Below are positions 21,789 through 46,747 of a stretch of 64,000 bases of DNA, in pieces. The notes under the pieces are model-generated. The model did no database searches and was not told the DNA's origin. It worked only from the letters and a program-made list of their open reading frames with translations. The stretch is from a virus (Duplodnaviria > Caudoviricetes): the IMG/VR virus record IMGVR_UViG_3300027782_000030, positions 96,001 to 160,000 of that record. One strand, written 5' to 3'. The translations under genes were made by a program, and so were the position numbers. Within the stretch, counting starts at the first letter, position 1. Every line of letters begins with the position of its first letter.

Positions 21789-22094
21789 ATGGATACTAAG
21801 ACACTAATTGCAGATGCTAAAGCTAGATTTAGCCATAATGCAGCCAAAGCTTATTTAAAAGACAAGTACGATAGCAAATTTATTGTTGCTGATCAAGGTG
21901 GACTTTGGCGCGCCAATTTAGAAACTATTAATTTTTTGAATGCAGTGACAGATGAAAGAGTTATTTTAATTGACACCTTTGACAATCCTGTAGAAGTAAA
22001 TAGACAGGAGTTAAAAGATAAGTTATATGCTGCATACAATGTTAGCATGAATAGTTGGCATCAAGAATGGGTTGAACTAGAGAATAAACGATGA
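21789..22094 (+). CDS. Hypothetical protein (possible fibre assembly chaperone)
   Basis: 101 aa with SD AGGAG. The function is a guess from its position after the fibre genes. Confidence 0.5.
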   Translation: MDTKTLIADAKARFSHNAAKAYLKDKYDSKFIVADQGGLWRANLETINFLNAVTDERVILIDTFDNPVEVNRQELKDKLYAAYNVSMNSWHQEWVELENKR

Positions 22095-22888
22095 GAGGAG
22101 TTCTCTTATTTGCGTTTAACAGCCCAAAATTTAATTACTATGACATGGCTGTGGCTACGGCAAAACGTGCTAATCATTTTTTAGGGTTACCAGTAACGTT
22201 AATAACGGATGAAGAATCACTGCCTGAAACCTCTACATATAAATTTGATAATATCATAGTAACAGAACCTGATAAAAACAACAGGCGTGATTGGGGCATG
22301 TGGATAAACAAGGGAAGATATAAAGCATATGAGTTCAGTCCATATGATGAAACTATATTGTTAGATGTAGATTATGTTATTAATTCTAATAAATTATTAG
22401 ATACTTTTAATTTACCTACAGATTTTTGTTGTCACGATACTACTAGTTTTTTAATGAATCCCGAAGCTACTCAAGAAGTACTAAGTGGATATAGTTTTAA
22501 AACTCTATGGGCTACAGTCATTACTTTTAAAAAAACTTTAAGGGCTAGGCAAGTATTTGAGTGCCTTCAAATGGTTCAACATAATTTTGACCATTATTCA
22601 AACATTCATGGGTTTATTGCTAATACCTTTCGTAACGATTACGCATTAACACTGGCCCTAAGAATTGTTAATGGACACCTAGATAGAGAAGAAGATGTTA
22701 TACCTTGGAATCTAGTACATATCGGAAAGAACACTACAATCTATCCTGAAACTGATGATGAGTTTAATGTTGAATACACTGTAATGTTTGATAATTGGAA
22801 AAGAGGAAAAATTCGTAAAGAATTCATTACTATTAAAGATACTGACTTTCATGTTATGAATAAAGAAAACATGTTGAGGCTTATATGA
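22091..22888 (+). CDS. GT-A-fold glycosyltransferase (GT8-like)
   Basis: N-terminal GVLLFA strand, ASPYDET-like motif (FSPYDETILLDVD) with DxD, and RNDYA motif; ATGA overlap with the upstream gene. Confidence 0.7.
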   Translation: MRGVLLFAFNSPKFNYYDMAVATAKRANHFLGLPVTLITDEESLPETSTYKFDNIIVTEPDKNNRRDWGMWINKGRYKAYEFSPYDETILLDVDYVINSNKLLDTFNLPTDFCCHDTTSFLMNPEATQEVLSGYSFKTLWATVITFKKTLRARQVFECLQMVQHNFDHYSNIHGFIANTFRNDYALTLALRIVNGHLDREEDVIPWNLVHIGKNTTIYPETDDEFNVEYTVMFDNWKRGKIRKEFITIKDTDFHVMNKENMLRLI

Positions 22889-23682
22889 GTAGAGGATTCG
22901 TTATAATGGCACAAAACACTAGTGAGGTAGATTATGTTAAATGTGCCGAAACATTGGCTATGAGCATTTATAAAGTAATGCCAAAAGCAAAAGTTTCTAT
23001 CATAACCAATGACAGTGTAGATAGTACTAAGTTTGATAAGATTATTCCTTTGCCATATGGTGATTTAGATATTAGTAGTAAATGGAAACTCATCAATGAT
23101 TGGCAAGTGTACGAGGCTAGCCCGTATGATGAAACTATTAAACTAGAATCAGACATTATTATCCCTAGAGATATTATGCATTGGTTCGATGTATGTGGTA
23201 AACAAGACTTAGTGCTATGCACTACTATAAGAAATTTAAAACAAGAAATTTCAACGGTGCGTGGGTATCGTAGATTCATTGATGAGAACAAACTACCTGA
23301 TGTTTATAATGCTATTACCTATTTTAAAAAATCTGACATAGCCAAAACCTTTTTTGAAATCGTAAGAAATGTTTTTGAAAATTGGGAAGACTTTAAACGT
23401 ACATTGAAATGTAATCCACAAGAGCCAGCCAGCACAGATTGGGTGTATAGCATAGCAGCACACATAATAGGTAAAGAAAAAACTACAATGCCCACATTTA
23501 CTGAAATGAGTATGATACATATGAAACAGTTTATTAACGGTAATCCAACTGAAAATTGGACTGATACCTTTATCTATGAATGTTTATCCGATCAAATAAG
23601 AGTGCAAACAGTGCCCCAACTTTATCCTTTTCATTATCATGTTAAGAACTTTTGTGATAAAATTATGCGAGGGTACGCATGA
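22885..23682 (+). CDS. GT-A-fold glycosyltransferase paralog (GT8-like)
   Basis: ASPYDETIKLESD aligns with the previous ORF (DxD is ESD here); STDWVY motif; ATGA overlap. Confidence 0.65.
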   Translation: MSRGFVIMAQNTSEVDYVKCAETLAMSIYKVMPKAKVSIITNDSVDSTKFDKIIPLPYGDLDISSKWKLINDWQVYEASPYDETIKLESDIIIPRDIMHWFDVCGKQDLVLCTTIRNLKQEISTVRGYRRFIDENKLPDVYNAITYFKKSDIAKTFFEIVRNVFENWEDFKRTLKCNPQEPASTDWVYSIAAHIIGKEKTTMPTFTEMSMIHMKQFINGNPTENWTDTFIYECLSDQIRVQTVPQLYPFHYHVKNFCDKIMRGYA

Positions 23683-24008
23683 GCGATGATGTAGTTATTA
23701 TTTGGGAAGCGCCTAAGATTATTCCTCCCGAATTTCGTTTATACTACGACGATAAGGGCAATGTTATCTGCTATACTTGTCAAAAACTAGAAGGTCAGTA
23801 TATTGTAATTGACGCATTGACATATGCTATAGCAAGACCTGATATACGAATCATCGATGGAAAAATTTCAACAGTAGCACCCAATGCTGTAGTATATAAA
23901 CTAATGCCCGCCGATGAGGGTAAGGCATGTTCTTCAGAAGATATTAGTATAATCTCAGATGGATCTATAGAAACAACGAATTGGAAATTAAAAATTTATG
24001 AGTTATGA
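23679..24008 (+). CDS. Hypothetical protein
   Basis: 109-aa ORF coupled on both sides within the operon. Confidence 0.6.
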   Translation: MSDDVVIIWEAPKIIPPEFRLYYDDKGNVICYTCQKLEGQYIVIDALTYAIARPDIRIIDGKISTVAPNAVVYKLMPADEGKACSSEDISIISDGSIETTNWKLKIYEL

Positions 24009-24948
24009 TATAGTTGATGTAGCAGATTTAGATTGCATCTATCTTAGTTATGATGAGCCACAGAAAGAAGAGTTTTGGCTTAAGATTAAAAATATGGTTC
24101 CTTGGGCTAAAAGAGTAGATGGGGTAAAGGGCAGTGATGCAGCACACAAAGCAGCCGGTGAAGCCAGCGACACCGAAAGATTTATTCTGATTGACGGTGA
24201 TAATATGCCCGATGAAAGTTTTTTCAATCTTCAACTAGACTTTACTGATAAAGATCCTAAGTACAAAAAAGCACAGTTTCGTTGGAAAGCAATCAACAGC
24301 ATCAACGGGCTTCGTTATGGCAACGGTGGTATGAGTTCTTGGACAAAAACATATGTTAGTGAAATGCGAACCCATGAACATCAAAAAGATGGTGATCTAT
24401 CTCGTGTTGCTGATTTTTGTTTAGATAGTGCTGACAATTTGTATTGGGCAATGTATGATTGTTATAGTACTACATATCCTAACTATACTCCCTTTCAAGC
24501 ATGGCGTGCTGGCTTCCGTGAAGGTGTGAAAATGTGCTTGAATCGTGGCGCAGTTCCATCTATAGATGAATTTAAAGAAACGGTAGCAAGTCGCAACTTA
24601 AATAATCTTACTATATGGCACAATGTTGGGGCAGATGTTGATAATGGATTGTGGGCCATATATGGCGCCCGCCTTGGAACATATATGACTATGCTAACTT
24701 CTTGGGAACATGTTAATGTACAGTGGTTTGACAACTACACTGTACTATGGGAAGAACACAAAGATAAAGACTCGGAGCGTGAAGCAACACTGCTAGGTGC
24801 TGCGCTACATGATAAACTTGGATTGCCTATGTGTACTCTAAGTAAAGAGCAGAGTAAATTCTTCAAACGTCATTATAACGCAGACAAGCATAATTTAGGT
24901 CCTTTGATCACCGAAATGGATGTGATCCGTAGAATCGAAGGATGGTAA
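23998..24948 (+). CDS. GT-A-like glycosyltransferase/nucleotide-diphospho-sugar transferase
   Basis: CIYLSYDEP...GVKGSDAAH...FILIDGDN (DxD) ...NGLRYGNGG...AWRAGFREGVK. Confidence 0.6.
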   Translation: MSYDIVDVADLDCIYLSYDEPQKEEFWLKIKNMVPWAKRVDGVKGSDAAHKAAGEASDTERFILIDGDNMPDESFFNLQLDFTDKDPKYKKAQFRWKAINSINGLRYGNGGMSSWTKTYVSEMRTHEHQKDGDLSRVADFCLDSADNLYWAMYDCYSTTYPNYTPFQAWRAGFREGVKMCLNRGAVPSIDEFKETVASRNLNNLTIWHNVGADVDNGLWAIYGARLGTYMTMLTSWEHVNVQWFDNYTVLWEEHKDKDSEREATLLGAALHDKLGLPMCTLSKEQSKFFKRHYNADKHNLGPLITEMDVIRRIEGW

Positions 24949-26348
24949 TGAGTACTGAACAAAAACGCATTAAAGACATTAAGATTAAAATAGAAAATGA
25001 AGTAGGTCCTACTTTTTGTCTAGCCAAATGGCATCATGTCACAATGTATCTACAATCCGGTGAAACACATAGTTGCTATCACCCCCAACCGCATAGGATC
25101 CCATTAAGCGAAATAATTGACAACCCTTCTGCACTACATAACACTAGTCAGAAGAAAGAAGAACGAAAGTTAATGTTAGATGGTGGCAAGCCTGAGGGTT
25201 GCCAGTACTGTTGGAACATTGAAGCAATGGGTCCTGACTATATCAGTGATCGGCATATTCGCAATGCTAGCATCTTTACTGAAGAAAGATATGAACAGAC
25301 TACCAAAGGACTTTGGAATCAAAATATAAACCCTGAGTACATTGAGATTAACTTTGGTAACGAATGTAATTTTAAATGTGGTTATTGTCATCCAAAGTAC
25401 AGTACTAGTTTTTATAAAGAGATTGAAAAATATGGTCCTGTCACAACAGTAAAAAATCATCGTTGCGATATAGATTGGATGAAATTATATCAGCGTGAAG
25501 ATGACAATCCATATGTTGATGCATTTTGGAAATGGTGGCCTGAACTTCGCAAGACCCTGACTATTATGCGTATTACTGGAGGGGAACCAACTCTACATAA
25601 GTCTACATGGCAATTGTTAGATTCAATCGAAGCAGATCCGATGCCATGGTTAGAGTTAAATATTAATAGTAACTTAGGAACCAAACCTCTTCTTATAGAA
25701 CGGCTTTCTCAAAAAGTAAAAAATCTTACTGACACTGGTAAAATTAAAAGTTTTAAATTGTTCACTAGCATGGATACATGGGGTAAGCGAGCCGAGTATA
25801 TTCGCACTGGATTAGACTTAGAGTTATGGGAACAAAATTTTCATACTTACCTTAAAAACACTGATAGCCCGATTACTTTTATGATTACATTTAATATCTT
25901 TAGTGTAACTACATTTAAAAGTTTTCTTGAAAAATTAATTGAATGGCGTAAAATTTATGGGTGGTATGATGATCCTACCAATCCACAACACCGTGTAAGA
26001 TTTGACACTCCATATCTTAGAGATCCTGTTCAGTATGATATGAATATTTTACCTAAAGAAGAATTCATGCCATATATGCATGATGCTCTATCTTATATGA
26101 AAGAGAATACTGATGATACTAGAGCAGACGCATTTAGTACAATTGAGTATGAAAAATTTAAGCGTGTAGTAGATTATATGGCTGAAACGGTATACCCTGA
26201 AGAAAAATTGCTACAAGGACGTAGAGACTTTTATAATTGGTTCAACGAATTGGATGAGCGTAGAGAAACTGATATGATATCTATATTTCCTGAATATTTG
26301 GGTTTCTATCGTATGTGCCAAGAAACAAACTCACTTAACCCACTATGA
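24948..26348 (+). CDS. Radical SAM enzyme with N-terminal twitch/SPASM-like Cys cluster (#1)
   Basis: CNFKCGYC and GGEPT motifs; N-terminal FC...SC...CQYC. The start is likely 24948 (TAATG overlap) rather than 24942. Confidence 0.85.
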   Translation: MSTEQKRIKDIKIKIENEVGPTFCLAKWHHVTMYLQSGETHSCYHPQPHRIPLSEIIDNPSALHNTSQKKEERKLMLDGGKPEGCQYCWNIEAMGPDYISDRHIRNASIFTEERYEQTTKGLWNQNINPEYIEINFGNECNFKCGYCHPKYSTSFYKEIEKYGPVTTVKNHRCDIDWMKLYQREDDNPYVDAFWKWWPELRKTLTIMRITGGEPTLHKSTWQLLDSIEADPMPWLELNINSNLGTKPLLIERLSQKVKNLTDTGKIKSFKLFTSMDTWGKRAEYIRTGLDLELWEQNFHTYLKNTDSPITFMITFNIFSVTTFKSFLEKLIEWRKIYGWYDDPTNPQHRVRFDTPYLRDPVQYDMNILPKEEFMPYMHDALSYMKENTDDTRADAFSTIEYEKFKRVVDYMAETVYPEEKLLQGRRDFYNWFNELDERRETDMISIFPEYLGFYRMCQETNSLNPL

Positions 26349-27601
26349 ATAAAGAACATTTACTAAAAGAAAGCAAATCATTTTGCATGTTACCATGGGT
26401 TCATTTCACGACTAGTCCTAGTGGTGATGCACTACCGTGTTGTATAGCAAAAACACCTATTGATGAGTTTGGATTTCATCGTCCGTTGGGTAATACTACT
26501 AGAGAAAGTATGATAGAAATTGTCAATTCTAAAGGAATGAACCAACTTAGACTTGACATGCTATCAGATGTTAAGAATACTATGTGTTCGACCTGTCACG
26601 CACATGATGATTTATTATTGGGAAGTTTTCGTTCTAGTTCAAATAAACAATACAGTAAACATTTTGATAATGTAATTGCTTCTACAAACGAAGATGGTTC
26701 TTTATCTGAATTTAAGATGAGATATTTTGATATTAGGTTTAGTAACATATGTAACTTTAAATGTAGAACATGTGGACCTGACTGGAGTAGTCAATGGGAA
26801 CAAGAAAACATTAAAAATAATATTTACCAACACAATATTATTAAAAATAATAAAAAAGAATTTTTAGAAGAAGTAATCAATCAAATCCCTAATATTGAAG
26901 AAGCATACTTTGCAGGAGGTGAACCTCTTATTACAGAAGAGCACTATATTCTGTTAGAAGAAATGATTAGGCAAGGTAGAACAGACACAGTGTTAAGGTA
27001 TAATACAAATCTAAGTAATTTAAAATTTAAAAACAAAGACTTAATGAGTCTTTGGAAACAGTTTACAAATAATATACAAATTTACGCCAGTGTAGATCAT
27101 TATGGGGAACGTGCTGAATATATACGACATGGGACAGATTGGACTGTAATAGAAGAAAACTTTTTATTAGCTAAAAAATCACCATATATTCAGTTACAAA
27201 TGAATACAGTGTTAAGTTTGTATAATTATAAAACTTTTTTAGAATTTTATCAGTATTTGTTTGATAAAGGGCTATATTCATCAACAGACAATACATATTC
27301 AATATATACTATGAGTTCACCTGAATTTCTTACTTCGAATATTTTACCACAGCACCATAAAGAAGAGGGTAAAATTAAAATATTAAAGTTGATAGATATT
27401 ATGAAGTCTATGGGATTTACAAAAAAACCCAACACTCTACATTTAGTGCAGGGCATCATTGATTGGACTATGGCGCCTAGTCAAAATACATGGGACAAAT
27501 ATAAAGAAGAATTTCAAACTAATACTGAACAACGAGATTCCCTTCGAGGTGAAAGTTTTGTCAAAACTTTTCCTGAACTTGCTGATTTAATGGAGGATTA
27601 A
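26345..27601 (+). CDS. Radical SAM enzyme with N-terminal twitch/SPASM-like domain (#2)
   Basis: FCMLPW...PCC...CSTC; CNFKCRTC; FAGGEP. Confidence 0.85.
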   Translation: MNKEHLLKESKSFCMLPWVHFTTSPSGDALPCCIAKTPIDEFGFHRPLGNTTRESMIEIVNSKGMNQLRLDMLSDVKNTMCSTCHAHDDLLLGSFRSSSNKQYSKHFDNVIASTNEDGSLSEFKMRYFDIRFSNICNFKCRTCGPDWSSQWEQENIKNNIYQHNIIKNNKKEFLEEVINQIPNIEEAYFAGGEPLITEEHYILLEEMIRQGRTDTVLRYNTNLSNLKFKNKDLMSLWKQFTNNIQIYASVDHYGERAEYIRHGTDWTVIEENFLLAKKSPYIQLQMNTVLSLYNYKTFLEFYQYLFDKGLYSSTDNTYSIYTMSSPEFLTSNILPQHHKEEGKIKILKLIDIMKSMGFTKKPNTLHLVQGIIDWTMAPSQNTWDKYKEEFQTNTEQRDSLRGESFVKTFPELADLMED

Positions 27602-28831
27602 ATGGCACATGATACTGATTATTTACTAACGAAAAGTGAAACATTTTGTATGTTTCCGTGGGTTCACTTTATGGCAACACCTTCAGGAGACGTATTTCCT
27701 TGCTGTGTTGGTGTCACAGAAACTCCCATGACTAAAATAAATCCTGATTCTACCTTTGAAACTATTATTAATAGTGATAATTTTAAAAAATTACGCAGAG
27801 ATATGTTATCGGAAACTAAAAATTCAACATGCACACATTGTTACAATACAGAAAAATTTAATAAAAGTTGGCGCTCTTTTGGAAATGTTACATTTAATTC
27901 CGACATAAATGAGGTATTAAGTAATACTAAAGAAGATGGTACTCTAGACAATTTTAAAATGAAATATTATGATATTAGATTTAATAATATTTGTAATTTT
28001 AAATGCCGAATGTGCGGCCCTGATTATAGTTCACTATGGGCACAAGAAGAAAATAATAGACTAAAACCATATCATCAAATACCTGTTTATAACTTGTCAA
28101 AAAATACTAAAATTCTCTCAGAATTTTTATCACATGTTGATGATGTAGAATTTGTGTATTTTGCAGGTGGTGAACCAATGATCACTGAAGAACATTACAC
28201 TATTTTAGAAGAGTTGATTAGGAAAAATAAAACTCATGTTAAAATAAGATATAACACAAATTGCAGTGTCTTGTCATATAAAGATAAAAATATATTTGAT
28301 TTATGGAAATATTTTGATCATATTGATATATCAGCAAGTATGGATCATATAGGTGAACGTGCAGAATATATTAGAACTGGAACAGATTGGGCAGTAATTG
28401 AGAATAATTTACACAGACTTAACAATGTTGAAAATATTACATTGTCTATTAATACTGTGCTTAGTGTATATAATTATACTACATTACCATTATTATATGA
28501 ATATTTTATTGATTTTGGGATTGTTAATAGCACTGTTTCAAATAATAGTTTAATATGTACTACTGACCCTAAATATTTTGCTGCCACTACCTTGCCTAAA
28601 ATTCTGAAAGAACAATGTTTGGCAAACAATTTAAAACTGCTTGATAAGATGAATTCTATAAATTCAGGATACTTAATTGAACCGGCTATTAAGTTTACAA
28701 ATTCAAGTGATGATTGGGATAAACAAAAAGAAAACTTTTTAAAAGAAACTTTATTGAGAGATGGGCTTAGAAACGATTCGTTTGAAAAAACTTTTCCTGA
28801 ATTAAAAATGATGATGGATATTAATTCATGA
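27602..28831 (+). CDS. Radical SAM enzyme with N-terminal twitch/SPASM-like domain (#3)
   Basis: FCMFPW...PCC...CTHC; CNFKCRMC; FAGGEP. Confidence 0.85.
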   Translation: MAHDTDYLLTKSETFCMFPWVHFMATPSGDVFPCCVGVTETPMTKINPDSTFETIINSDNFKKLRRDMLSETKNSTCTHCYNTEKFNKSWRSFGNVTFNSDINEVLSNTKEDGTLDNFKMKYYDIRFNNICNFKCRMCGPDYSSLWAQEENNRLKPYHQIPVYNLSKNTKILSEFLSHVDDVEFVYFAGGEPMITEEHYTILEELIRKNKTHVKIRYNTNCSVLSYKDKNIFDLWKYFDHIDISASMDHIGERAEYIRTGTDWAVIENNLHRLNNVENITLSINTVLSVYNYTTLPLLYEYFIDFGIVNSTVSNNSLICTTDPKYFAATTLPKILKEQCLANNLKLLDKMNSINSGYLIEPAIKFTNSSDDWDKQKENFLKETLLRDGLRNDSFEKTFPELKMMMDINS

Positions 28832-30057
28832 TTGATAAAAATTATTTACTAAATGAAAGTAAAGTGTTTTGTATGTTTCCATGGATGCACTTAAATGTAA
28901 CTCCTAAGGGAGATATATATCCCTGTTGTAGCAATGACTACACTGTTCCATATGGCAATACTAAAGAAACTAGCCTCAAAGAAGCATTTAATAATCACCA
29001 AATGAAACAATTGAGATTAGATATGTTGGCTAACAAACCAAACAAGATATGTAACTTTTGCTATAAACATGAAGAAGCAGGTCCCCATAGTTTCAGAAAC
29101 TATAGCAAAGAACAGTTTGGTAAACACTTTGATGAGATTATACCCACTACACTTGAAGATGGTACTGTTCCTGAATTCAAAATGCATTACTTTGATATTA
29201 GGTTTAGTAACATATGCAACTTCAAATGCAGAACATGTGGGTCAGAATTTAGTAGTCAATGGGGAGCAGAAATGCGAGCCAATCATGATCCTAAACATCC
29301 TATAGTGATTCATGCCGACGAAAAAGGCAATTTACTTCGTGAAGTATTGGATCAGGTAGAACATATTGATTTGGCATATTTTGCGGGTGGCGAGCCTACT
29401 CTGACAGAAGAACACTATATTATGTTAGAGGAAATGATTCGCAAAAAGCGTACGGATATTACACTTAGGTATAATACTAATGCTAGTAATATTAAGTTCA
29501 AAGACTATGATTTGTTAGACATGTGGAAACACTTTAAAAAAATTGAACTAAGTTGTAGTATAGATCATTATGGCGAACGGGCTGAATGGTTACGACATGG
29601 AACTGATTGGGGTCTAGTTGAAAGTAACCTGTTAAAGTTTAGAGAATTAGATTATATCTCATTCCAATTGAACACTGTTTTTTCATTGTTTAACTACTTG
29701 ACTATTGGAGAATTCTACTCGTATCTAAAAAGTAAAGGATTGGTTCGTACTCATGATTGGTATCATAGTTTATACTTAGCAGTGCATCCTAGTCACTATA
29801 GTGCTAAGAGTTTACCCAAAGAATTAAAGATTGATGCGACAAATAAGGCTATGGCTTGGGCAAATCAGTATCGGGATGATGAAACATCATTATCACGTTT
29901 AGTAACAGATGCGGTTAACTTTGCAAAAGATTCTGATATTTGGGCTGAGAATAAAGAAACATTTATGATGCATACTGGATCAGGGGATAAGATACGAGGC
30001 GAAAATTTTTGGAAAACATTCCCTGAATTAAATAAACTACAAGATTTGACGGAGTAA
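28828..30057 (+). CDS. Radical SAM enzyme with N-terminal twitch/SPASM-like domain (#4)
   Basis: FCMFPW...PCC...CNFC; CNFKCRTC; FAGGEP. Confidence 0.85.
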   Translation: MIDKNYLLNESKVFCMFPWMHLNVTPKGDIYPCCSNDYTVPYGNTKETSLKEAFNNHQMKQLRLDMLANKPNKICNFCYKHEEAGPHSFRNYSKEQFGKHFDEIIPTTLEDGTVPEFKMHYFDIRFSNICNFKCRTCGSEFSSQWGAEMRANHDPKHPIVIHADEKGNLLREVLDQVEHIDLAYFAGGEPTLTEEHYIMLEEMIRKKRTDITLRYNTNASNIKFKDYDLLDMWKHFKKIELSCSIDHYGERAEWLRHGTDWGLVESNLLKFRELDYISFQLNTVFSLFNYLTIGEFYSYLKSKGLVRTHDWYHSLYLAVHPSHYSAKSLPKELKIDATNKAMAWANQYRDDETSLSRLVTDAVNFAKDSDIWAENKETFMMHTGSGDKIRGENFWKTFPELNKLQDLTE

Positions 30058-30059
30058 AA

Positions 30060-31337
30060 ATGCAAAACCCCTTGGTAATAGAAAATTTAGTTAAGTTTGG
30101 AAAACACTTTTGTGTATTACCTTGGGTACATTTTCACTCATGGCCAGACGGTAAAGTAATGCCTTGTTGTGTCGCAGATAGTTCTATGCCAGTGGCAAAT
30201 ATTAATGATGGCGAATCTATTATTCAGATGATGAATAGTGATGACTACAAAAAAATGCGTGAAGCAATGCTAGTTGATGAGCCTGTCGAAGCATGTAGAA
30301 GGTGTTATGACTTAGAACTATTAGGTACGTGGACTATGCGTAAAAGTCATAATAAACGCAGAGGTCTAGAATATGTTAACATGATTGCAGAAACTACCGA
30401 TGATGACGGTACTATTTCTGAATTCAACATGAAGTATATGGACTTGCGTTTCAGTAATATGTGTAATATGAAATGCCGTAGTTGTGGTCCTGGATGTAGT
30501 AGTCTTTGGGCACAGGAATATGTTGATGAAAAGGGCATAGATGAATACGAAAAGCATTTTAAAACTAAAAAAATTGTAGTCAATACCGCAGAAGAAATGA
30601 GTTTTATGAGTAAACTAAAACCATATCTTAAAGACGTATTAGAAGTTTATTTTGCAGGTGGAGAAATCATTATTACTCCTGAGCATTATGAGTGCTTAGA
30701 CTACTGGGTTGAAAATGGATTGACGGATCAAGTTGAGTTGACCTATACTACTAATTTTAGTGCAATGAAATATAAAGACAAAGACTTGCTTGGGTATTGG
30801 AAGAAGTTCCCTCAATTAAAAATTTGGGCTAGCCTAGATGCACATGGCGATGTAGCAGAAGTTATACGCAAGGGTACAGATTGGGAAAGAATTGTTAAAA
30901 ACATTAGAACATTAAAAGAACAAGTACCTCATGCACAATTTCAAATTACCCCAACCCTTAGCATTTGGAATATATTTGATTTCCCTGATTTTTTTGATTA
31001 TCTGATTAAAGAAAATTTGATAGATGATAAGACAACTAGCCCAAGATTTAATCTAGCAACTAATCCATGGTACGCAAACATCATGATTCTACCTGTTTCT
31101 GTTAAACATAGGTTAATGGAATTGTACAGAGTGTATGCGGATAGATATGAAAATGTCAATATTGAACTACACAATGGCTTTAAAATGATAATTTACAATT
31201 TAAGCGTTGGTGAAGAGAATAAAGGCGGCATTTTAGAGTTTAAAAAGTTCAATGATGAACTAAATCAATTTAGAAATGAAAAGATAGAAGATATTATTCC
31301 TGAACTCAAAGAGATATATCAGTGGGCCGAAAGTTAA
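30060..31337 (+). CDS. Radical SAM enzyme with N-terminal twitch/SPASM-like domain (#5)
   Basis: FCVLPW...PCC...CRRC; CNMKCRSC; FAGGE. Confidence 0.85.
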   Translation: MQNPLVIENLVKFGKHFCVLPWVHFHSWPDGKVMPCCVADSSMPVANINDGESIIQMMNSDDYKKMREAMLVDEPVEACRRCYDLELLGTWTMRKSHNKRRGLEYVNMIAETTDDDGTISEFNMKYMDLRFSNMCNMKCRSCGPGCSSLWAQEYVDEKGIDEYEKHFKTKKIVVNTAEEMSFMSKLKPYLKDVLEVYFAGGEIIITPEHYECLDYWVENGLTDQVELTYTTNFSAMKYKDKDLLGYWKKFPQLKIWASLDAHGDVAEVIRKGTDWERIVKNIRTLKEQVPHAQFQITPTLSIWNIFDFPDFFDYLIKENLIDDKTTSPRFNLATNPWYANIMILPVSVKHRLMELYRVYADRYENVNIELHNGFKMIIYNLSVGEENKGGILEFKKFNDELNQFRNEKIEDIIPELKEIYQWAES

Positions 31338-32299
31338 TAGCTATAGAGGCTCCCCAGCCTTACTTGGCCGTTACATGGCAAGTTAATAACTATTGTAACT
31401 TTAGGTGTAGTTATTGTAACCCGGGTAATTGGGGAGGCACTGACATCAATGATGGCAATCTAGACTTATACATCAACAATCTAGATATTATCATTAATCG
31501 TTATAGAGAGATAGGTTATAAGAATTTTAAATTTTTCTTTAGTGGTGGTGAGCCCACTGCTTGGCGTAACTTTATTCCAATATGTGAATGGTTATACAAA
31601 GAACTACCCCATGCTACTCTAGCCGTTAACACTAACCTAAGTCGCCCATTGAAATGGTGGCAAAAGAATCATTATCTATTTGATGATGTGGTCGCTAGTT
31701 TCCATGTAGAGTTTGCCGATAAAAATCGCTATGAAGAAAATAGTATATTCTTATGCGATAAGGTAAACTATTTGGCTACTAAGATGTTACTACATGAAGA
31801 AAGATTTTGGGAAATAGTAGAATTTGGTAAGCACTTAAAAACAGTAATGCCAAACTACTTTTTAGAATGGACTCCGCTATTTGATGAGATGAGTGTAAAC
31901 GCAGGTCCTTGGACATACAAAGATCCTGCAAAAACCCAGTTCATTAACGATTGTACATCAGAGCATCAACAAACTAAACCAAAGCCTGATAAACGATCAA
32001 ACTACAATGTTAGTTATAATAGATACGACGATAATCATTATGAAGTATGTAATAGCAACGAAGTGATTGTTGCGGGTAATAATTATTTTAGCGGTTGGAA
32101 CTGCAATGTAGGTGATGCTATTTTTATCAATCCAGTAGGCGAGGTCAGTTTAGCAAGTTGTGGTATGGGTGGTAATGTGGGTCATATATTAAAGGATATT
32201 TCTCGTGTTGGACCTAAACAAATCATTTGCAAAAAAGAACATTGCCATTGTGGCACAGACATTATAATCCCTAAATTTATAAACAATGGCAATTCTTAA
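31322..32299 (+). CDS. Radical SAM enzyme with C-terminal Cys-rich auxiliary cluster (#6)
   Basis: CNFRCSYC; SGGEPT; C-terminal WNC...SC...CKKEHCHC; GTG start. Confidence 0.85.
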   Translation: MGRKLIAIEAPQPYLAVTWQVNNYCNFRCSYCNPGNWGGTDINDGNLDLYINNLDIIINRYREIGYKNFKFFFSGGEPTAWRNFIPICEWLYKELPHATLAVNTNLSRPLKWWQKNHYLFDDVVASFHVEFADKNRYEENSIFLCDKVNYLATKMLLHEERFWEIVEFGKHLKTVMPNYFLEWTPLFDEMSVNAGPWTYKDPAKTQFINDCTSEHQQTKPKPDKRSNYNVSYNRYDDNHYEVCNSNEVIVAGNNYFSGWNCNVGDAIFINPVGEVSLASCGMGGNVGHILKDISRVGPKQIICKKEHCHCGTDIIIPKFINNGNS

Positions 32300-33515
32300 T
32301 AGAGACTCTTATCCTAAGATTCATACTAGTTTTGAAAAAGTAGGTACACCGCATTGGACAGCACCTGTTAACAAGACTGTTACAGAAGGAAATGTAACTT
32401 TTCAAGTATATTACTTTGATGAAAATAAAGATTATTGGTTCATTGACATATATAACGGAAATGCATTTGAATGTTACCCTATAGAAACTATTCTTCCTGA
32501 AGAAATATTAAGAAAAGTTTACAATAAGGAAGTAATATTATTAATTTCAAATACTCATGAAACTTATCACAGTTGTATTACTGGAATATATAGAGATTTG
32601 GTAGTTAGGGCTAATATCCCTATAGAGCAGATAATATTTCTAACCGAGTCTGCTGATATAATAGAAGAAGTAGACATTGTAAGACAAAAATATAATTTAG
32701 AACGAATCAATGTTGAATGGATAAGAACATTTGAGTTCAACGCAAAAAGTCAATTTTTACATATGTTTACTAATCCACCATTAACTCTTGAAAATAAACA
32801 TTATGATAAAAAGTTTCTAAGTTTTAATCGCCATATGATGACTCACGGTAGATTGCATAGAGGCGGTTTAATAGCATTATTATGTGCTATGAACTTATTA
32901 GACAATGGATTCGTTAGTGCTGGAATGTTTTATGAATATCCAACTTGGAATGACATTTTAAATGAGTTAAAACGTTACCATAATGACAGTGAAGAATTCA
33001 TTCAGTTATTAATGGCTAACGAACAACGAATTTTAAATATTGGCGACTTGACTGTAGATGTAGATAGCACTGTTTTAAAAGAGCGTGATAATGCTTATCT
33101 TTTACCTTCTATAGCTAAATTTTATGAAGATTCTTATTTTAGCGTAGTTACTGAAACAAATTGTTTTGCTAAAGGAATAATGCAGGGTGATATAACTCCA
33201 CCTGGTAGATTACTAAGTGAAAAAACATTTAAAACGATTGCTATTAAACATCCCTTCATTATAGTAGCTAGAGCTAAAACACTTGAATTGCTTAGAGAAA
33301 TAGGATATAGAACATTTAGTCCATGGATAGACGAAAGTTATGACAATGAATTAAATGAATCAGCTAGAATGTTAATGATAGTTAAAGAAATAAAAAGATT
33401 GTGTGAATTATCTTCTGACCAGTTAGTTGAGTTTTTAAACAATACTAGAGAGATTTGCGAATACAATCATCAAGTATTATTGAGTAAAAATAAATGGACA
33501 ACACAACTAAATTAA
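32286..33515 (+). CDS. Uncharacterised glycosyltransferase-like protein (YFS.VTET...EK...PF...DESYD family, copy 1)
   Basis: C-terminal SYFSVVTETN...SEKTFK...HPFII...GYRTF...DESYD. Only a remote resemblance to the GT10/GT-B C-terminal lobe. Confidence 0.5.
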   Translation: MAILNRDSYPKIHTSFEKVGTPHWTAPVNKTVTEGNVTFQVYYFDENKDYWFIDIYNGNAFECYPIETILPEEILRKVYNKEVILLISNTHETYHSCITGIYRDLVVRANIPIEQIIFLTESADIIEEVDIVRQKYNLERINVEWIRTFEFNAKSQFLHMFTNPPLTLENKHYDKKFLSFNRHMMTHGRLHRGGLIALLCAMNLLDNGFVSAGMFYEYPTWNDILNELKRYHNDSEEFIQLLMANEQRILNIGDLTVDVDSTVLKERDNAYLLPSIAKFYEDSYFSVVTETNCFAKGIMQGDITPPGRLLSEKTFKTIAIKHPFIIVARAKTLELLREIGYRTFSPWIDESYDNELNESARMLMIVKEIKRLCELSSDQLVEFLNNTREICEYNHQVLLSKNKWTTQLN

Positions 33516-33969: not shown

Positions 33970-34670
33970 AAGTTATCTTTAATTAAATTTAAAATTTCAA
34001 TCTGCTGCTGAGGTGAGGTATGATAATGGGCATCACCGAAGATATCAACATAATTCTGTTTATATGTGTTACCGGTAATACATTCATACCATGGTACTTC
34101 AGTAATTGGCATATTAAGTAAATCAATGACTAATATAGCAGGTATATTACTTACATATAATTTATGTAATACTGCTTGCATACACCATAAATCTATTTTT
34201 CTTTTCATCATGGGTGAATACATATGCATGAACCATTGTTTTATAGCATCGTCCTTTTCTTTGGGAGCATGAGCTTTAGGGAATTTTGTTATAATTGGCT
34301 CATGTAATAACGACATAAGATTCTCACTAATTAAGGACGGCGAAGTATTATTATTTAATATCCTAGGATAATATGATATATCGAATAAGCTAGCACACCT
34401 ATTTACATATCTATTATCATTGTCTTCACCTGAAGTAGTGCTTAATTCTATGCGGTCAATGACCGTAGTCCCAAATAATATTAGATCAGGTTTATCTAAT
34501 ATGGCCTGTTCAATTTGCAGTGCGATTCCACCGTTACTCATTCCCCCGCGAGCATATGTAACAAGGTCATATCCTAATTCCTTAGCAAACAATTCTGAAA
34601 AATGAGTATTTTTATAATTATTATAATCTGGTGTCATCCAACTATCACCGCATACTATTAATTTTGGCAT
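33966..34670 (-). CDS. SGNH/GDSL-like hydrolase or acyltransferase
   Basis: N-terminal LIVCGDSW, then GGMSN, and C-terminal DAHYH. Confidence 0.6.
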   Translation of the reverse strand: MPKLIVCGDSWMTPDYNNYKNTHFSELFAKELGYDLVTYARGGMSNGGIALQIEQAILDKPDLILFGTTVIDRIELSTTSGEDNDNRYVNRCASLFDISYYPRILNNNTSPSLISENLMSLLHEPIITKFPKAHAPKEKDDAIKQWFMHMYSPMMKRKIDLWCMQAVLHKLYVSNIPAILVIDLLNMPITEVPWYECITGNTYKQNYVDIFGDAHYHTSPQQQIEILNLIKDNL

Positions 34671-35866
34671 ATTTCTACCTTAGGAAAATATTTTAAGAAA
34701 ATGTCTTGCTCAATATTACGCACAGTTTTAATTCTTTTACTAATCTCTGTAAAAAAGTTCCAAGCCAATGGCATAAACACAAGCCGATCATTTGAACTAA
34801 ACTCTTTGATAGCATCAGGTCCTTTTATAAGAATATTTGTTCCTGGCGTATACAAATTATGCTTTAATGGGTTGTCATCTATAATCAAATCTAACTTCAT
34901 ATCTAAGAAATTCAATAGTGTATTACCTTTTGCGGCTGCACCGTAGCCAATTATTTTATAGCCGTTAAACTTATAGGACTCTATAGTACGCTTTAACTCG
35001 TCCATATTACTTTTGACATTTTTTTCCCATATAGTATACGTTTTTATGTTTAGTAAGGCTTTCTCTGTTTTGATTTTGTCATCGATGGTCGATGAATCAT
35101 CCTTAGTACTTAATATGAATAAGTAACTGTTACCGTGTACAGGAGTTTTGATAGCGTCAATCAAGTATAGCCCTGCTCTTTTGGCTAACTCATACAGACT
35201 GTTGATATTAAAGAAATTAATATGCTCATGGTATATAGTATCAAACTCATTATTCAGAACCATATCTGCTTGACTAGTCTGAATGAATAATAGTGTATGG
35301 TCACGCATCAACTTTTTACAAGTTTGTAAGAATTCTAGTGGGTTAGGATTATGTGCAAAAACATTTTGGGCAGTTATAGCATCAAATTCATATTTAATTT
35401 TATCTACCACATCAGGACCAAAAAAGTCACATATGACATTATGTTTTGCTGAACTAGTAGGATATATATTTTCTGCTGGATCTACACCAAACGTGTTAAA
35501 CCCTCTAGACTTGAAAGAATCTAATTGAGTTCCGTCATTGCATCCAATATCTAATACATTGGATGTTTGTTTGTTTAGTTTTTCAATGACATAATTAGCA
35601 AACCATTCGCTATAATCTTTTAGGGTTTTGCTAGTACCGCTTACATACAAGTAGTTTTTATAGATTGTTTTTGGATCAACCGTATGAGTTAATTGAAGAT
35701 GATAGCAGATTCTGCATAAATTTACTGCTAGAGGATACCGATCTTCAATCCCATCTTTAAGATTGAGATAACTGTTAGCCAATGGTTGAATACCTAGGTC
35801 AAGCGCCAATGACAAATTTTTATTACCACACGCTAAACACGCATGATTGTATTCTATTTTACTCAT
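34658..35866 (-). CDS. NDP-sugar C-methyltransferase (Zn-binding N-domain, SAM domain, C-terminal Methyltransf_14-like domain)
   Basis: CLACG...LDLGIQPLAN...CRIC; VLDIGCNDG; QNVFAH; IYHEH; GYGAAAKGNTLLN. Confidence 0.85.
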   Translation of the reverse strand: MSKIEYNHACLACGNKNLSLALDLGIQPLANSYLNLKDGIEDRYPLAVNLCRICYHLQLTHTVDPKTIYKNYLYVSGTSKTLKDYSEWFANYVIEKLNKQTSNVLDIGCNDGTQLDSFKSRGFNTFGVDPAENIYPTSSAKHNVICDFFGPDVVDKIKYEFDAITAQNVFAHNPNPLEFLQTCKKLMRDHTLLFIQTSQADMVLNNEFDTIYHEHINFFNINSLYELAKRAGLYLIDAIKTPVHGNSYLFILSTKDDSSTIDDKIKTEKALLNIKTYTIWEKNVKSNMDELKRTIESYKFNGYKIIGYGAAAKGNTLLNFLDMKLDLIIDDNPLKHNLYTPGTNILIKGPDAIKEFSSNDRLVFMPLAWNFFTEISKRIKTVRNIEQDIFLKYFPKVEICQN

Positions 35867-36764
35867 ATGGTATGAACTGGTTTCTATTGCTAAAGGTTGT
35901 CTGATCTATCTTAGATACAATATCATTGACAATTGAGTCAATAGTCTCTTTAAACTGAAAGTTATAAGTATGCTTAAATTTTTGAGTGTTCATAATAAAA
36001 TCATAAACGCCTGTTACGCTAGGTTGTATTTTTATATTTGAAGTAGTTAAACTACTAACCATTAGGCTAATGTTATCAACAGTGTCATAGAAGCTAGCCA
36101 AGTTGTATATTCCAACTTTTGGATTCTGTAGTACACTATTAACTGCAAGACCAATATCAGCGATACCCAATATTGGTCTTGTTATTTCTTTATTATTAAT
36201 AAAAATGGTACCCAACTCAATTGATTTTTTAGTCATTGAATTAATCATTAGGTCTTCCCGCATGTTTGGACTCCATCCATTCACTGTTCCAAATCTAAAT
36301 CCAATTATATTATACCCATCTTGAATAAACTTTAGTGCATGTGTATCAAGCGTGTATTTGGTTAGATCATAGTTGTTTATGGGTTTAAATAGCAAGTTAT
36401 TATCTTCGCTCGTTTCTTTGGCAGAGTTACCGTACACACTTCCGCTGCTTGCATAAATCAATGTTTGTTTTTTGTCAATCATTGATACCAAATTGACAAA
36501 GTTATTAACATTGTTGTTAAAACTTGAAGTAATATCGCCGTTACACATATTCACTGAACTATGACCGGCAAGTAGAATTATGGCATCAAACTTACCTAGG
36601 AATTCTTTGGAAAGAGTATTGTAATCCTGTGTAATACTAGTACCTAGATTTCTTTCAAACCAACAAAGGTCAACACTCTGCATTTGGTATTGATATTGAA
36701 GGTCATGTATTAGTCTAGATCCTATATATCCATTGCCTCCCAAAATTAAGACTGTTTTAGCCAT
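35859..36764 (-). CDS. NAD-dependent NDP-sugar epimerase/dehydratase (extended SDR)
   Basis: GGNGYIG; YASSGSVYG; YDLTK (YxxxK). Confidence 0.85.
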   Translation of the reverse strand: MAKTVLILGGNGYIGSRLIHDLQYQYQMQSVDLCWFERNLGTSITQDYNTLSKEFLGKFDAIILLAGHSSVNMCNGDITSSFNNNVNNFVNLVSMIDKKQTLIYASSGSVYGNSAKETSEDNNLLFKPINNYDLTKYTLDTHALKFIQDGYNIIGFRFGTVNGWSPNMREDLMINSMTKKSIELGTIFINNKEITRPILGIADIGLAVNSVLQNPKVGIYNLASFYDTVDNISLMVSSLTTSNIKIQPSVTGVYDFIMNTQKFKHTYNFQFKETIDSIVNDIVSKIDQTTFSNRNQFIPYE

Positions 36765-36808: not shown

Positions 36809-37951
36809 ATGATTGTGAATAATCTTAAATTCTATTATATAGATACTGTATCTGCCTCAGATAATGAAGTCCCTTCAATTAGGTACGCCAGTGCTTATCA
36901 ATCGTTGCCGATATATTCTAACCATAATTATTATTACATAGAATTTAAACGGTCTCTTTCTAGTTTATCTGAATGTTTGATTAAGGACAATGTATTACAT
37001 CAGCTAGTACACGGTGACTTATACCTTGCGCTATGTAATAGTCATGAAGCCTTTCATTCTGTAGTTGATGAAGTATATGAACACGCTGTAATAGAATTAG
37101 CCATTCCTGAACATAAGATTATATTAATAAGCGAATCAGCGGATATAGTCACTGAAGTTAACGATGTGGCATTACAATTGGGTAAACATCCTATTAAAAC
37201 TCTTTGGGCTAGAATTTTTGAATGGGCAGGTAATAGATATATTAATTCCGTTTTAAACGGTAAAACTAATCCCAAATTAATAGACAAATCTTTTGGTAAA
37301 GCTTTTTTAAATTTTAATAGGAGATGGAGAACACACAGACCTGCTTTAGTAGCATTATTATTTGCTAATAATTTATTAGATAGGGGTTATGTAAGTTTGG
37401 CTCCGGTAGAGGGAACGAATTGGGAACTGATTTGGTGGTCATTAGTATCGTATCATAATGAAGAGATATCTACATTGTTAACAATGTACAAAGACGATAT
37501 ATGCAACATACCTCCTTTATTTTTAGACGCCGAAAATATGGAAGTCAACCGAGTTGAACATAGTGAGTCAGTAGCATATTTGTATAATGACAGTTATTTT
37601 AGCATAGTGACTGAAACAAATTATTATGCCAATCAACCGGGACGATTCTTCAGTGAAAAAGTTTTTAAACCAGTTGTTATGGAACATCCATTTATAATAG
37701 TATCTAGGCCACATTCACTAGCAAAATTTAAAGAATTGGGCTATAAATCATTTAGTCCATATATTGATGAATCATACGATGAAGTAGAAGATGACTCGGA
37801 AAGATTACTAGCGATAGTAAACGAAATAAAAAGATTGTCTCTTTTATCCCCTACAGAATTGTCAGAATTTTTAATCAATGTAAAGCCTATATGCGATTAT
37901 AATTTTAAAATTTTGTTAACTAAAAAAAATTTTATTACCCATTTAAATTAA
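36809..37951 (+). CDS. Uncharacterised glycosyltransferase-like protein (copy 2; paralog of 32286..33515)
   Basis: FLNFNRRWRTHR...SYFSIVTETN...SEKVFKP...HPFII...GYKSF...DESYD. Confidence 0.5.
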   Translation: MIVNNLKFYYIDTVSASDNEVPSIRYASAYQSLPIYSNHNYYYIEFKRSLSSLSECLIKDNVLHQLVHGDLYLALCNSHEAFHSVVDEVYEHAVIELAIPEHKIILISESADIVTEVNDVALQLGKHPIKTLWARIFEWAGNRYINSVLNGKTNPKLIDKSFGKAFLNFNRRWRTHRPALVALLFANNLLDRGYVSLAPVEGTNWELIWWSLVSYHNEEISTLLTMYKDDICNIPPLFLDAENMEVNRVEHSESVAYLYNDSYFSIVTETNYYANQPGRFFSEKVFKPVVMEHPFIIVSRPHSLAKFKELGYKSFSPYIDESYDEVEDDSERLLAIVNEIKRLSLLSPTELSEFLINVKPICDYNFKILLTKKNFITHLN

Positions 37952-37953
37952 CT

Positions 37954-38763
37954 ATGACAGATTTATCTAACATTGATTTTGGTAAATATAAACGCTTCTT
38001 TGCGTTTGGATGCAGTTTTACTTCATATCATTGGCCTACTTGGGCTGATGTATTAGCATCTGAAATGCCTAATGCTGAATTTTACAATTTTGGACATTGC
38101 GGTGGTGGTAATTCAATGATATCTAATCGCATTGCTGAAGCAAATTGTAGATATAAATTTACCGATACTGATTTAGTTGTGCCGATGTGGACTACATTTT
38201 GTAGAGAAGATAGGTATAGAACTGGTCAATGGATGAGTACTGGTAATATGTTTAGCCAAAATGAATTTGATGAAGAATTTGTGAGAAAATATTGCGACCC
38301 AATTGGATATTTGTTAAGAGATTTAGCAATAATTACTGTTACAAGTACCTATCTTAAATCCTTGCCTTCTGATTCATTCATGTTAAATGGAGTACCTTAT
38401 ACTTATCAAATGGATATTGAAACCGCACCATATCCAAAATTAAAAGAAATTTTGGAATTATATAAAGACACTATTAGCTTAACTCCACCTGCATTAGTTG
38501 ATTTAGAATTAGGAGGTGAATTTAAACACGGTCATGAATACTCAAGGATGCATAATGGTGATTGGTACTTAGACTATCATCCAAACACATTGCATTATAA
38601 TGGATACCTTAAAAAAATAGGTCTACCGTTAACATCTAAATCTTCAATGTATACAGAACATTCAATGACATTGTTAAAATCAACTAAAACAGAAGCACAA
38701 TTGATCATCGCCTTTAATAAAATGGTTGACGATAGAAATACAAAATTAAAAAATCTTTTTTGA
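37954..38763 (+). CDS. SGNH-like protein
   Basis: FAFGCSFT...W...NFGHCGGGN...DYHP. Confidence 0.55.
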   Translation: MTDLSNIDFGKYKRFFAFGCSFTSYHWPTWADVLASEMPNAEFYNFGHCGGGNSMISNRIAEANCRYKFTDTDLVVPMWTTFCREDRYRTGQWMSTGNMFSQNEFDEEFVRKYCDPIGYLLRDLAIITVTSTYLKSLPSDSFMLNGVPYTYQMDIETAPYPKLKEILELYKDTISLTPPALVDLELGGEFKHGHEYSRMHNGDWYLDYHPNTLHYNGYLKKIGLPLTSKSSMYTEHSMTLLKSTKTEAQLIIAFNKMVDDRNTKLKNLF

Positions 38764-38777
38764 ACTTAGGAATATTA

Positions 38778-41132: not shown

Positions 41133-41135
41133 TAA

Positions 41136-43385: not shown

Positions 43386-43953
43386 GTTTGAAACGGTTAT
43401 AAAAGAATATTATAACAGCCCATATGCGGTTACAACTGATTGTTGTACCCACGCTATTGAACTATGTATTAGGTTATTAAAGCCAACTGAGGTATCATGT
43501 CCAAAACACACCTACCTAAGTGTTCCAATGACATTTGAAAAATTAAATCTAGATTGGAGATTTAAAAATTTTAAATGGAATGATTATTATTATATAACTA
43601 ATAATATTATTGATGCGGCAGTATATTGGAAGCCCGATGGATATATCCCTAATACATATATGTGCTTGTCATTTCAATTTAAAAAGCATTTAAATGTGGG
43701 TAGAGGTGGCATGATATTAACCGACGATTATGAATCTTATAAAAAATTAAAAAAGATGAGTTATGATGGTAGGCTTCCCGATATTGCATGGGCTGAACAA
43801 GACGTAGACACATTGGGTTATCATTATTATATGACACCTGAAACTGCTGAGTTGGGTTTAGATAGATTTCACGAAGTAAAGGACATTGAACCTAGACAAT
43901 GGTCTTGGAAAGACTATCCCGACTTAACAACAATGAGTGTATTCAAATGCTAA
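43369..43953 (+). CDS. DegT/DnrJ/EryC1/StrS-family PLP aminotransferase (short form)
   Basis: AVTTDCCTHA; IDAA; LSFQFKKHL.VGRGGMILTDD (PLP Lys region); GYHYYM. It is only 194 aa. Confidence 0.8.
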   Translation: MNPILEFETVIKEYYNSPYAVTTDCCTHAIELCIRLLKPTEVSCPKHTYLSVPMTFEKLNLDWRFKNFKWNDYYYITNNIIDAAVYWKPDGYIPNTYMCLSFQFKKHLNVGRGGMILTDDYESYKKLKKMSYDGRLPDIAWAEQDVDTLGYHYYMTPETAELGLDRFHEVKDIEPRQWSWKDYPDLTTMSVFKC

Positions 43954-46648: not shown

Positions 46649-46747
46649 ATGTTTATATTTAAATGGATTAAGAATATTATCCGAGAATACAAATACCGTA
46701 AAAGAATTAAAGAATTACGCAAACGGGATCCTTTCATATACAAATGA
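46649..46747 (+). CDS. 32-aa basic peptide (not in ORF track), coupled to the carbamoyltransferase
   Basis: TAAATA and SD AAGGAG lie upstream. It reads MFIFKWIKNIIREYKYRKRIKELRKRDPFIYK, with an ATGA overlap to 46744. Confidence 0.75.
   Translation: MFIFKWIKNIIREYKYRKRIKELRKRDPFIYK

Follow-up and report, generated by a model that had tools for sequence, protein, structure and literature searches.

Six radical S-adenosylmethionine (SAM) enzymes, R1–R6, are encoded back to back in a 64,000-nucleotide stretch of viral DNA (the window) that corresponds to bases 96001–160000 of the 200,570-bp IMG/VR virus record IMGVR_UViG_3300027782_000030 (estimated completeness 58%). The source is a large uncultured freshwater phage, and near-identical copies of the segment 24942–32299 are present in several freshwater metagenomes. 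R1–R5 belong to NCBIfam family NF033640 (N_Twi_rSAM, twitch domain-containing radical SAM protein), and the six genes are translationally coupled and represent a module that is conserved among phages, of which they are a standard example. In our reading, which has about an even chance of being correct, this module tailors a sugar or glycan built by neighbouring sugar enzymes, with the substrate and the reaction both being predictions; it is favoured because the annotated neighbours are sugar enzymes. The locus is a typical example of a known, unstudied family, and what is new here is the fixed gene order in phages, the subfamily trees and the selection estimates.

The open reading frame (ORF) listing of the window gave six intact plus-strand radical SAM genes spanning 24942–32299, in agreement with the preliminary description of this DNA, which had reported six adjacent or overlapping radical SAM genes:

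24942–26348, plus strand, R1, 468 aa; N_Twi radical SAM protein of the R1 subfamily (CGYC, with a single Cys in place of a CC doublet)
26345–27601, plus strand, R2, 418 aa; N_Twi radical SAM protein, an accessory copy of the phage-only R2/3/4 clade
27602–28831, plus strand, R3, 409 aa; N_Twi radical SAM protein, an accessory copy of the R2/3/4 clade
28828–30057, plus strand, R4, 409 aa; N_Twi radical SAM protein, the always-kept member of the R2/3/4 clade
30060–31337, plus strand, R5, 425 aa; N_Twi radical SAM protein of the R5 subfamily, always directly upstream of R6
31322–32299, plus strand, R6, 325 aa, GTG start; radical SAM protein of conventional layout with a C-terminal twitch-like five-Cys domain

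R1 and R2 overlap by 4 nt, R2 and R3 abut, R3 and R4 overlap by 4 nt, R4 and R5 are separated by 2 nt, and R5 and R6 overlap by 16 nt, the last overlap being conserved in relatives. An alternative ATG of R1 at 24948, the start used previously, overlaps the upstream TAA by one base. R1–R6 are embedded in a twelve-gene plus-strand block (21789–33515) in which all junctions overlap, abut or leave a gap of ≤2 nt. Counted over the full 200-kb record, there are ten radical SAM genes.

Against NF033640 (curated cut-off of 170 bits), R1–R5 scored 310.8, 357.1, 351.2, 367.4 and 357.4 bits, respectively, covering model positions ~1–398 with E-values of 1.5e-92 to 9e-110, which are far beyond chance. The N-terminal twitch layout, put forward in the preliminary description as a 'domain-permuted' arrangement, is the defining feature of this curated family and was already catalogued. 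The Pfam SPASM model PF13186 (gathering score of 21.5 bits) matched residues ~14–85 of R2 (40.0 bits), R3 (34.9 bits), R4 (44.8 bits) and R5 (33.5 bits), with the Radical_SAM domain following; R1 had no Pfam SPASM match, yet it retains the four Cys residues. Matches to Radical_SAM (PF04055) were above the gathering score in R2–R4 and slightly below it in R1, R5 and R6. The family is large: a profile of R1–R5 found 5043 clusters at 50% identity (E ≤ 1e-30), tandem, TPR and Sel1 fusions included, and R4 had 2722 close homologs. Searches of the PDB, Swiss-Prot and the literature found no characterised NF033640 member or solved structure, and no paper naming the family came up in full-text searches.

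The alignment of R1–R5 is invariant at F25, C26, W30, H32, G40, C45, C87, C90, C142, C146 and C149 (R1 numbering) and at G213-G214-E215, the GGE SAM-binding motif. The resulting pattern, FC..W.H...G....C...CxxC and then CX3CX2C, places a half-SPASM (twitch) motif, C-x13-G-x4-C ... CxxC, N-terminal to the SAM-cluster motif, as had been described for five paralogs from an FC..W.H...C(C)...CxxC segment. The G-x4-C spacing (G40, C45) is that of the first half of the SPASM consensus, a CC doublet occurs in R2–R5 against a single C in R1, and 54 diverse NF033640 members show the same Cys pattern with little or no variation. The four N-terminal Cys residues fit the twitch consensus and give no reason to doubt the predicted auxiliary cluster, and neither NCBIfam nor Swiss-Prot maps the family to a characterised housekeeping enzyme. 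The SAM motif ends in CGYC in R1, CRTC in R2, CRMC in R3, CRTC in R4 and CRSC in R5. The non-aromatic residue before the last Cys of R2–R5 had been read correctly, but it is a family trait and not a local peculiarity: the residue is T, S, M, I or G in 278 of 351 distinct family members and Y in 73 of 351, the Y variants being mostly CGYC or CSYC motifs, which is the form of R1.

R6 is not a member of NF033640, to which it scored 26.1 bits over the core only, and it stays under the cut-off of every NCBIfam family. Across 22 relatives, C25/C29/C32, G75-G76-E77 and the C-terminal residues C261, C280, C303, C308 and C310 are invariant, which bears out the C-terminal Cys cluster reported earlier for the sixth enzyme; Pfam SPASM gave no match. 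The AlphaFold2 (AF2) model of R6 (predicted local distance difference test (pLDDT) of 86.5) shows a barrel of strands alternating with helices, and its fold matches extend over residues 12–322, led by BlsE (7vob_C, Z 15.3) and followed by CteB, ChlB, SkfB, anSME and MoaA (Z 13.6–14.0; anSME, 13.7). Because of the C-terminal Cys set and this fold alignment, R6 is assigned a conventional layout with a C-terminal twitch-like domain. Homology between this domain and the N-terminal Cys domain of N_Twi proteins was considered and is not supported by sequence, as hhalign weakly aligned the beta-hairpin alone (probability of 4%). A complex prediction for R5 and R6 scored 0.00 and is uninformative on binding either way.

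The AF2 model of R4 (pLDDT 94.7) comprises a beta-hairpin with helices at residues 1–110, as in twitch domains, a partial TIM barrel at residues 120–320, and a helical domain at residues 330–406 that ends in a conserved FPEL motif. With CX3CX2C and GGE invariant and a barrel of alternating strands and helices in both the R4 and R6 models, R1–R5 and R6 are members of the radical SAM superfamily. No solved structure or Swiss-Prot entry matched R4 past the generic core (Foldseek TM 0.3–0.5), and VIA-align over residues 120–373 only gave Z scores of 13.3 for BlsE and 13.1 for anSME. As judged from the models, the top fold matches (BlsE, anSME, CteB, MoaA and viperin) are tied generic radical SAM cores.

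A search with R6 gathered 77 related viral contigs, 66 of which had enough upstream sequence for gene order to be read. The order G316–R1–(one to three copies of the R2/3/4 clade)–R5–R6 was found in 65 of the 66 loci, with one copy of the clade in 18 or 19, two copies in 37 and three in 9; R2 occurs in only part of the related phages. Upstream of the array lie the tail genes t206/t408/t317 followed by s101–GTa–GTb–s109, and the downstream content is variable, including U380/U409 paralogs, a UDP-glucose dehydrogenase (UGDH)-like gene, a B12-binding radical SAM gene and a carbamoyltransferase gene. In one 363-kb JGI phage contig (L008), the G316 ortholog has an HNH_3 endonuclease gene on either side, and ten small ORFs lie between the R1 and R4 orthologs in the place of R2 and R3 (3600–5728 and 7175–9941).

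Pairwise identities are 21–23% between R1 and the others, 39–48% among R2, R3 and R4, and ~30% between R5 and R4. In quick LG+G4 trees with SH-aLRT support only, R2, R3 and R4 form one clade that contains phage contigs only (SH-aLRT 99–100). Other phages carry orthologs of R2, of R3 and of R4, indicating that the duplications are old, and only R4 is invariably kept. R1 falls in a deep subfamily that is common to genes from Bdellovibrionota metagenome-assembled genomes (MAGs; SH-aLRT 98–100), and R5 groups (SH-aLRT 97) with precisely the bacterial N_Twi genes found ahead of an R6-type gene (loci L073, L042 and L057). Compared with the two nearest relatives, dN/dS was 0.02–0.07 for G316, R1, R4, R5 and R6 (gene values of 0.03–0.055, with 0.03 for each of R1, R4 and R6), 0.10 for R2 and 0.13 for R3, the ratios being approximate since dS is near 1. 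All six R genes are under purifying selection and are functional, with the accessory copies R2 and R3 being less constrained. The paralogs are therefore diverged rather than recent copies (21–48% identity, trees, dN/dS of 0.03–0.13), as had been suggested, and the sub-functionalisation proposed with that suggestion fits old, diverged copies that are each kept by purifying selection.

Bacterial counterparts were recovered with an alignment-based query, a scan of genome contigs with R4 alone having given no match. Among 30 loci from bacterial genome or MAG records, the commonest neighbours were other radical SAM genes, GT2, PhyH, B12-binding radical SAM and GT1 genes, none of which was dominant; this tally includes a few probably misbinned phage contigs. 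Four MAG contigs (L024, L045, L029 and L020; Haliscomenobacter EUL_031 ctg1 and ctg3, Legionellales SP228 and Verrucomicrobia TMED56) carry 5–6 copies. Their synteny with the window extends from the tail genes to the carbamoyltransferase; they are hence probably phage contigs binned into MAGs, and their arrays were dropped as independent bacterial support. In the Bdellovibrionota loci, the pair of an R5-type gene followed by an R6-type gene recurs, together with an R1-type gene, and the R6-type genes of L073, L042 and L057 are 38–46% identical to R6. L073 also holds a GT2 gene, an AsnB-like amidotransferase gene and a B12-binding radical SAM gene whose product is 65% identical to that of the window. 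L042 is flanked by genes for PrkA, a pseudouridine synthase and an HAD hydrolase; the first two mark it as genuinely chromosomal.

The Bdellovibrionota cassettes also contain, after the R6-type gene, a short (~338 aa), very divergent radical SAM gene with an N-terminal SPASM that forms a deep branch of its own (L042, 13608–14624; L073, 7811–8827; L057, 11396–12418).

The remaining genes of the coupled block in the window are as follows:

21789–22094, plus strand, s101; small conserved protein with which the gap-free coupled block begins
22091–22888, plus strand, GTa; 265 aa, gene order conserved in viral loci
22885–23682, plus strand, GTb; 265 aa, paralog-like, phrog_1903
23679–24008, plus strand, s109; small conserved protein
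23998–24948, plus strand, G316; 316 aa, directly 5' of R1, among the most conserved genes of the block
32286–33515, plus strand, U409; final gene of the block, with three further local paralogs

G316 lies directly upstream of R1 in 65 of 66 loci, has a dN/dS of 0.037 and is found in Atlas in viral clusters only. Profile searches with it against PDB, NCBIfam and Pfam gave no meaningful match, and its assignment as a GT-A transferase, a guess that none of the three databases backs, was set aside. GTa matched no Pfam or NCBIfam family, and a DxD-like motif read by eye is a lead only towards a possible transferase role. A family search with s101 was without match; most of the 77 related viral loci have an ortholog of it at the corresponding place. 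For U409, Atlas yielded only a faint GT10 lead (0.78). No T4-type late promoter (TATAAATA) was found in or before the block, the motif being under-represented in the window, and sigma-70 and terminator scans were uninformative.

Past the block, the island contains the following annotated genes:

34658–35866, minus strand; sugar C-methyltransferase (Pfam Methyltransf_14/13/23)
35859–36764, minus strand; short-chain dehydrogenase/reductase (SDR) epimerase/dehydratase (Pfam Epimerase)
38760–43953, plus strand; UDP-glucose/GDP-mannose dehydrogenase-like protein (790 aa), B12-binding radical SAM protein (749 aa) and short DegT-type protein
46744–48225, plus strand; NodU/Nol-like carbamoyltransferase (NF041651, E 5e-38, below cut-off; phrog_1601, E 2e-91)

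The 790-aa protein is UGDH-like over its N-terminal 280 residues and belongs to the U409 paralog set. The products of 32286–33515, 36809–37951, 38760–41132 and 44906–46627 match the same ORF set in related contigs, the 38760–41132 product with an unspecified part of its length; these matches point to a second multi-copy family in the island, with U409 among its members. The DegT/DnrJ/EryC1-type protein (43369–43953, plus strand, 194 aa) has its best stretch at positions 165–240 of a 360-position model and may be a truncated or split aminotransferase.

These neighbours frame our reading of the module. The coupled block is followed by the C-methyltransferase, SDR epimerase, UGDH-like, B12-binding radical SAM, DegT-type and NodU-like genes, and its order is kept in 65 of the 66 viral loci directly behind tail genes. 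The R5–R6 pair recurs in bacteria. Pelagimyophages carry radical SAM cassettes inside a host-recognition cluster that adjoins tail-fibre genes (PMC7029224); these are large aquatic myophages in which radical SAM genes, as here, vary in number, and they adjoin tail-fibre genes, although the cassettes are mentioned there in passing, with neither family nor function. Nucleotide and protein searches of GenBank phages returned no close cultured relative of the phage studied here, the only matches being 23–25% identical proteins of Vibrio phages K566/K567 and Ralstonia phage RsoM2USA. Measured against NF033640 as a whole, R1–R5 are identical in architecture; what sets this locus apart is the presence of five members from three deep subfamilies in one phage operon, together with a radical SAM enzyme from outside the family.

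Two enzymes of known function offer comparisons with the module. BtrN is the founding twitch enzyme and acts on a sugar-like substrate. As in R1–R5, a four-Cys half-SPASM is present in BtrN (2-deoxy-scyllo-inosamine dehydrogenase, PDB 4M7T), where it binds an auxiliary [4Fe-4S] cluster, and residues 185–258 of BtrN align to positions 11–82 of the R1–R5 profile. However, the BtrN twitch is C-terminal and that of R1–R5 N-terminal, the marginal similarity (E 0.03) does not extend past the twitch motif, and the likeness gives no evidence of the same reaction. The substrate of BlsE is a glucuronic acid derivative, i.e. a sugar acid. BlsE (cytosylglucuronate decarboxylase, PDB 7VOB) is the best structural match of R6 (Z 15.3 over 270 residues, root-mean-square deviation of 4.1) and of the R4 core, and its substrate class parallels the UGDH-like protein encoded in the island, 6 kb downstream. 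Sequence identity is 10–14% and the likeness is structural alone; the Z scores of BlsE are within ~1.3 of those of CteB, anSME, SkfB and MoaA. The BlsE family model TIGR04466 matched R3 only, at 16.8 bits against a cut-off of 400, and R6 was without match at E ≤ 0.01.

The same likenesses could be taken to mean that the product of the island is a small soluble compound, for instance a pseudo-sugar of aminoglycoside or nucleoside type, with the radical SAM enzymes acting on free intermediates in the manner of BtrN, BlsE, AprD4 and DesII. C-methyltransferase, aminotransferase, carbamoyltransferase and B12-binding radical SAM enzymes are typical tailoring enzymes of such pathways, which adds to the BlsE fold match of R6 and the R4 core and to the BtrN twitch alignment, and similar cyanophage genes have been annotated 'antibiotic synthesis' (PMC12801897). 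We nevertheless regard a soluble product as quite improbable: no scaffold-forming enzyme (e.g. 2-deoxy-scyllo-inosose synthase) was among the proteins scanned, no exporter was seen, the scores of the BlsE, BtrN and AprD4 family models are far under their cut-offs, and a structural role is suggested by the position behind tail genes, which 65 of the 66 phage loci have in common.

It is highly improbable that R1–R6 act on nucleotides or on DNA or RNA, whether as viperin- or MoaA-like enzymes or in hypermodification, with the sugar genes as unrelated neighbours. After NF033640, the best core sequence matches are indeed the prokaryotic viperin, MoaA and QueE models, and viperin is the best PDB match by sequence (E 6e-4). 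The scores against viperin (NF038283) and MoaA (TIGR02666) nonetheless reach only 20–37 bits over the core, compared with cut-offs of 180 and 284, respectively, so that the generic core alone is held in common, and the genes are translationally coupled with putative glycan genes and stand beside tail genes rather than replication genes.

Tailoring of a protein or peptide is unlikely as well, though it has to be taken seriously. The target would be a giant virion protein, the tail fibres upstream or a small co-operonic protein, and the reactions would be crosslinks, epimerisation or beta-carbon chemistry of the kind carried out by sactipeptide, PoyD and anSME-type maturases. The module lies directly behind the tail genes, and immediately upstream of these is an ORF of ≥6241 aa (3–18728, plus strand) that runs off the 5' end of the window and may encode a giant protein of the virion or fibres. 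Peptides are the substrates of most characterised SPASM/twitch enzymes, and the top fold matches include CteB, SkfB, anSME, ChlB and EpeE. Fusions to TPR or Sel1 repeats, which as a rule are protein-binding, occur in some family members, the island includes an Asp/Arg-hydroxylase-like gene, and the operon holds two conserved small proteins, s101 and s109. The peptide maturases (anSME, CteB, SkfB and PqqE) resemble R1–R5 in their radical SAM core subclass and in having the auxiliary-cluster motif, but their auxiliary domain is C-terminal, often with 7–8 Cys for two clusters, and many have an N-terminal RRE. R1–R5 instead have one N-terminal four-Cys set and a family-specific C-terminal helical domain with FPEL, and no RRE/PqqD-like leader-binding domain was found in R1–R6 in Pfam or NCBIfam scans, no dedicated precursor-peptide search having been made. 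By eye, s101 and s109 are unlike precursor peptides, with no repeated or Cys/Gly-rich core; a Pfam scan of the giant ORF gave a weak FG-GAP repeat only and no recognisable repeat target; and the remaining annotated neighbours are sugar enzymes.

If R1–R6 tailor a sugar or glycan, the radical SAM set would be expressed as a single unit, coupled in transcription and translation, from its place behind the tail genes. From the motifs, each enzyme is predicted to bind two clusters: a [4Fe-4S] cluster that cleaves SAM and an auxiliary one ligated entirely by Cys, which would conduct electrons as in BtrN or anSME. The R1, R4, R5 and R6 subfamilies would each carry out a different step initiated by hydrogen abstraction, on one sugar scaffold or on different glycan residues, candidate steps being oxidation, epimerisation, decarboxylation and dehydration, and R2 and R3 would be lineage-specific extras that widen or vary the chemistry. 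The likely place for the product is on the virion or tail fibres, as a decoration, or on the surface of the infected cell. It is consistent with this proposal that the modelled R4 core and R6 both best match twitch/SPASM-class enzymes and that BlsE, the leading match, works on a sugar acid.

Several points weigh against sugar or glycan tailoring. The sugar chemistry is drawn solely from gene context, with no NF033640 member of known substrate to lean on. The fold matches of the models are tied among generic cores, and the likeness to BlsE does not establish function. The chromosomal cassette L042 has no adjacent glycosyltransferase, and G316, GTa, GTb, s101, s109 and U409 are without a detectable family, so that a glycosyltransferase identity is unconfirmed. 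The peptide substrates of most characterised SPASM/twitch enzymes and the protein-binding habit of TPR and Sel1 repeats count here as well.

A more specific version of sugar tailoring, which we put forward tentatively and with more doubt than confidence, is that G316, R1, R4, R5 and R6 make up an undescribed radical glycan-editing pathway for a tail-fibre sugar, with R2 and R3 as variable add-ons. Several NF033640 subfamilies and a BlsE-like partner would then perform successive C–H activation on a sugar made by the phage. If so, gain and loss of R2/3/4-clade copies would diversify the decoration, and hence host recognition or evasion, and a family of thousands of members would receive its first function. 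Phages keep a fixed multi-enzyme NF033640 set beside tail genes under strong purifying selection, and because such enzymes are oxygen-sensitive and iron-demanding, they must repay their cost. The reaction, once worked out, would provide annotation for thousands of genes and might uncover novel radical reactions on sugars as well as a means by which phages alter their surface. A compact, translationally coupled phage module with defined candidate partners is a practical biochemical entry point.

Further members of the family were noted outside the window. The 200-kb record itself contains a seventh NF033640 member, a very divergent one (199 bits; G000:C1:32129-33259, listed as L006 1495–2664), which adjoins a minus-strand protein with an SGGADS PP-loop-like motif read by eye. 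The Elusimicrobia MAG MJ-2014_bin-0981 has at least nine contigs with N_Twi genes (e.g. L048, L049, L052, L058 and L044), many of them tandem ORFs of 700–1000 aa, i.e. fused to extra domains.

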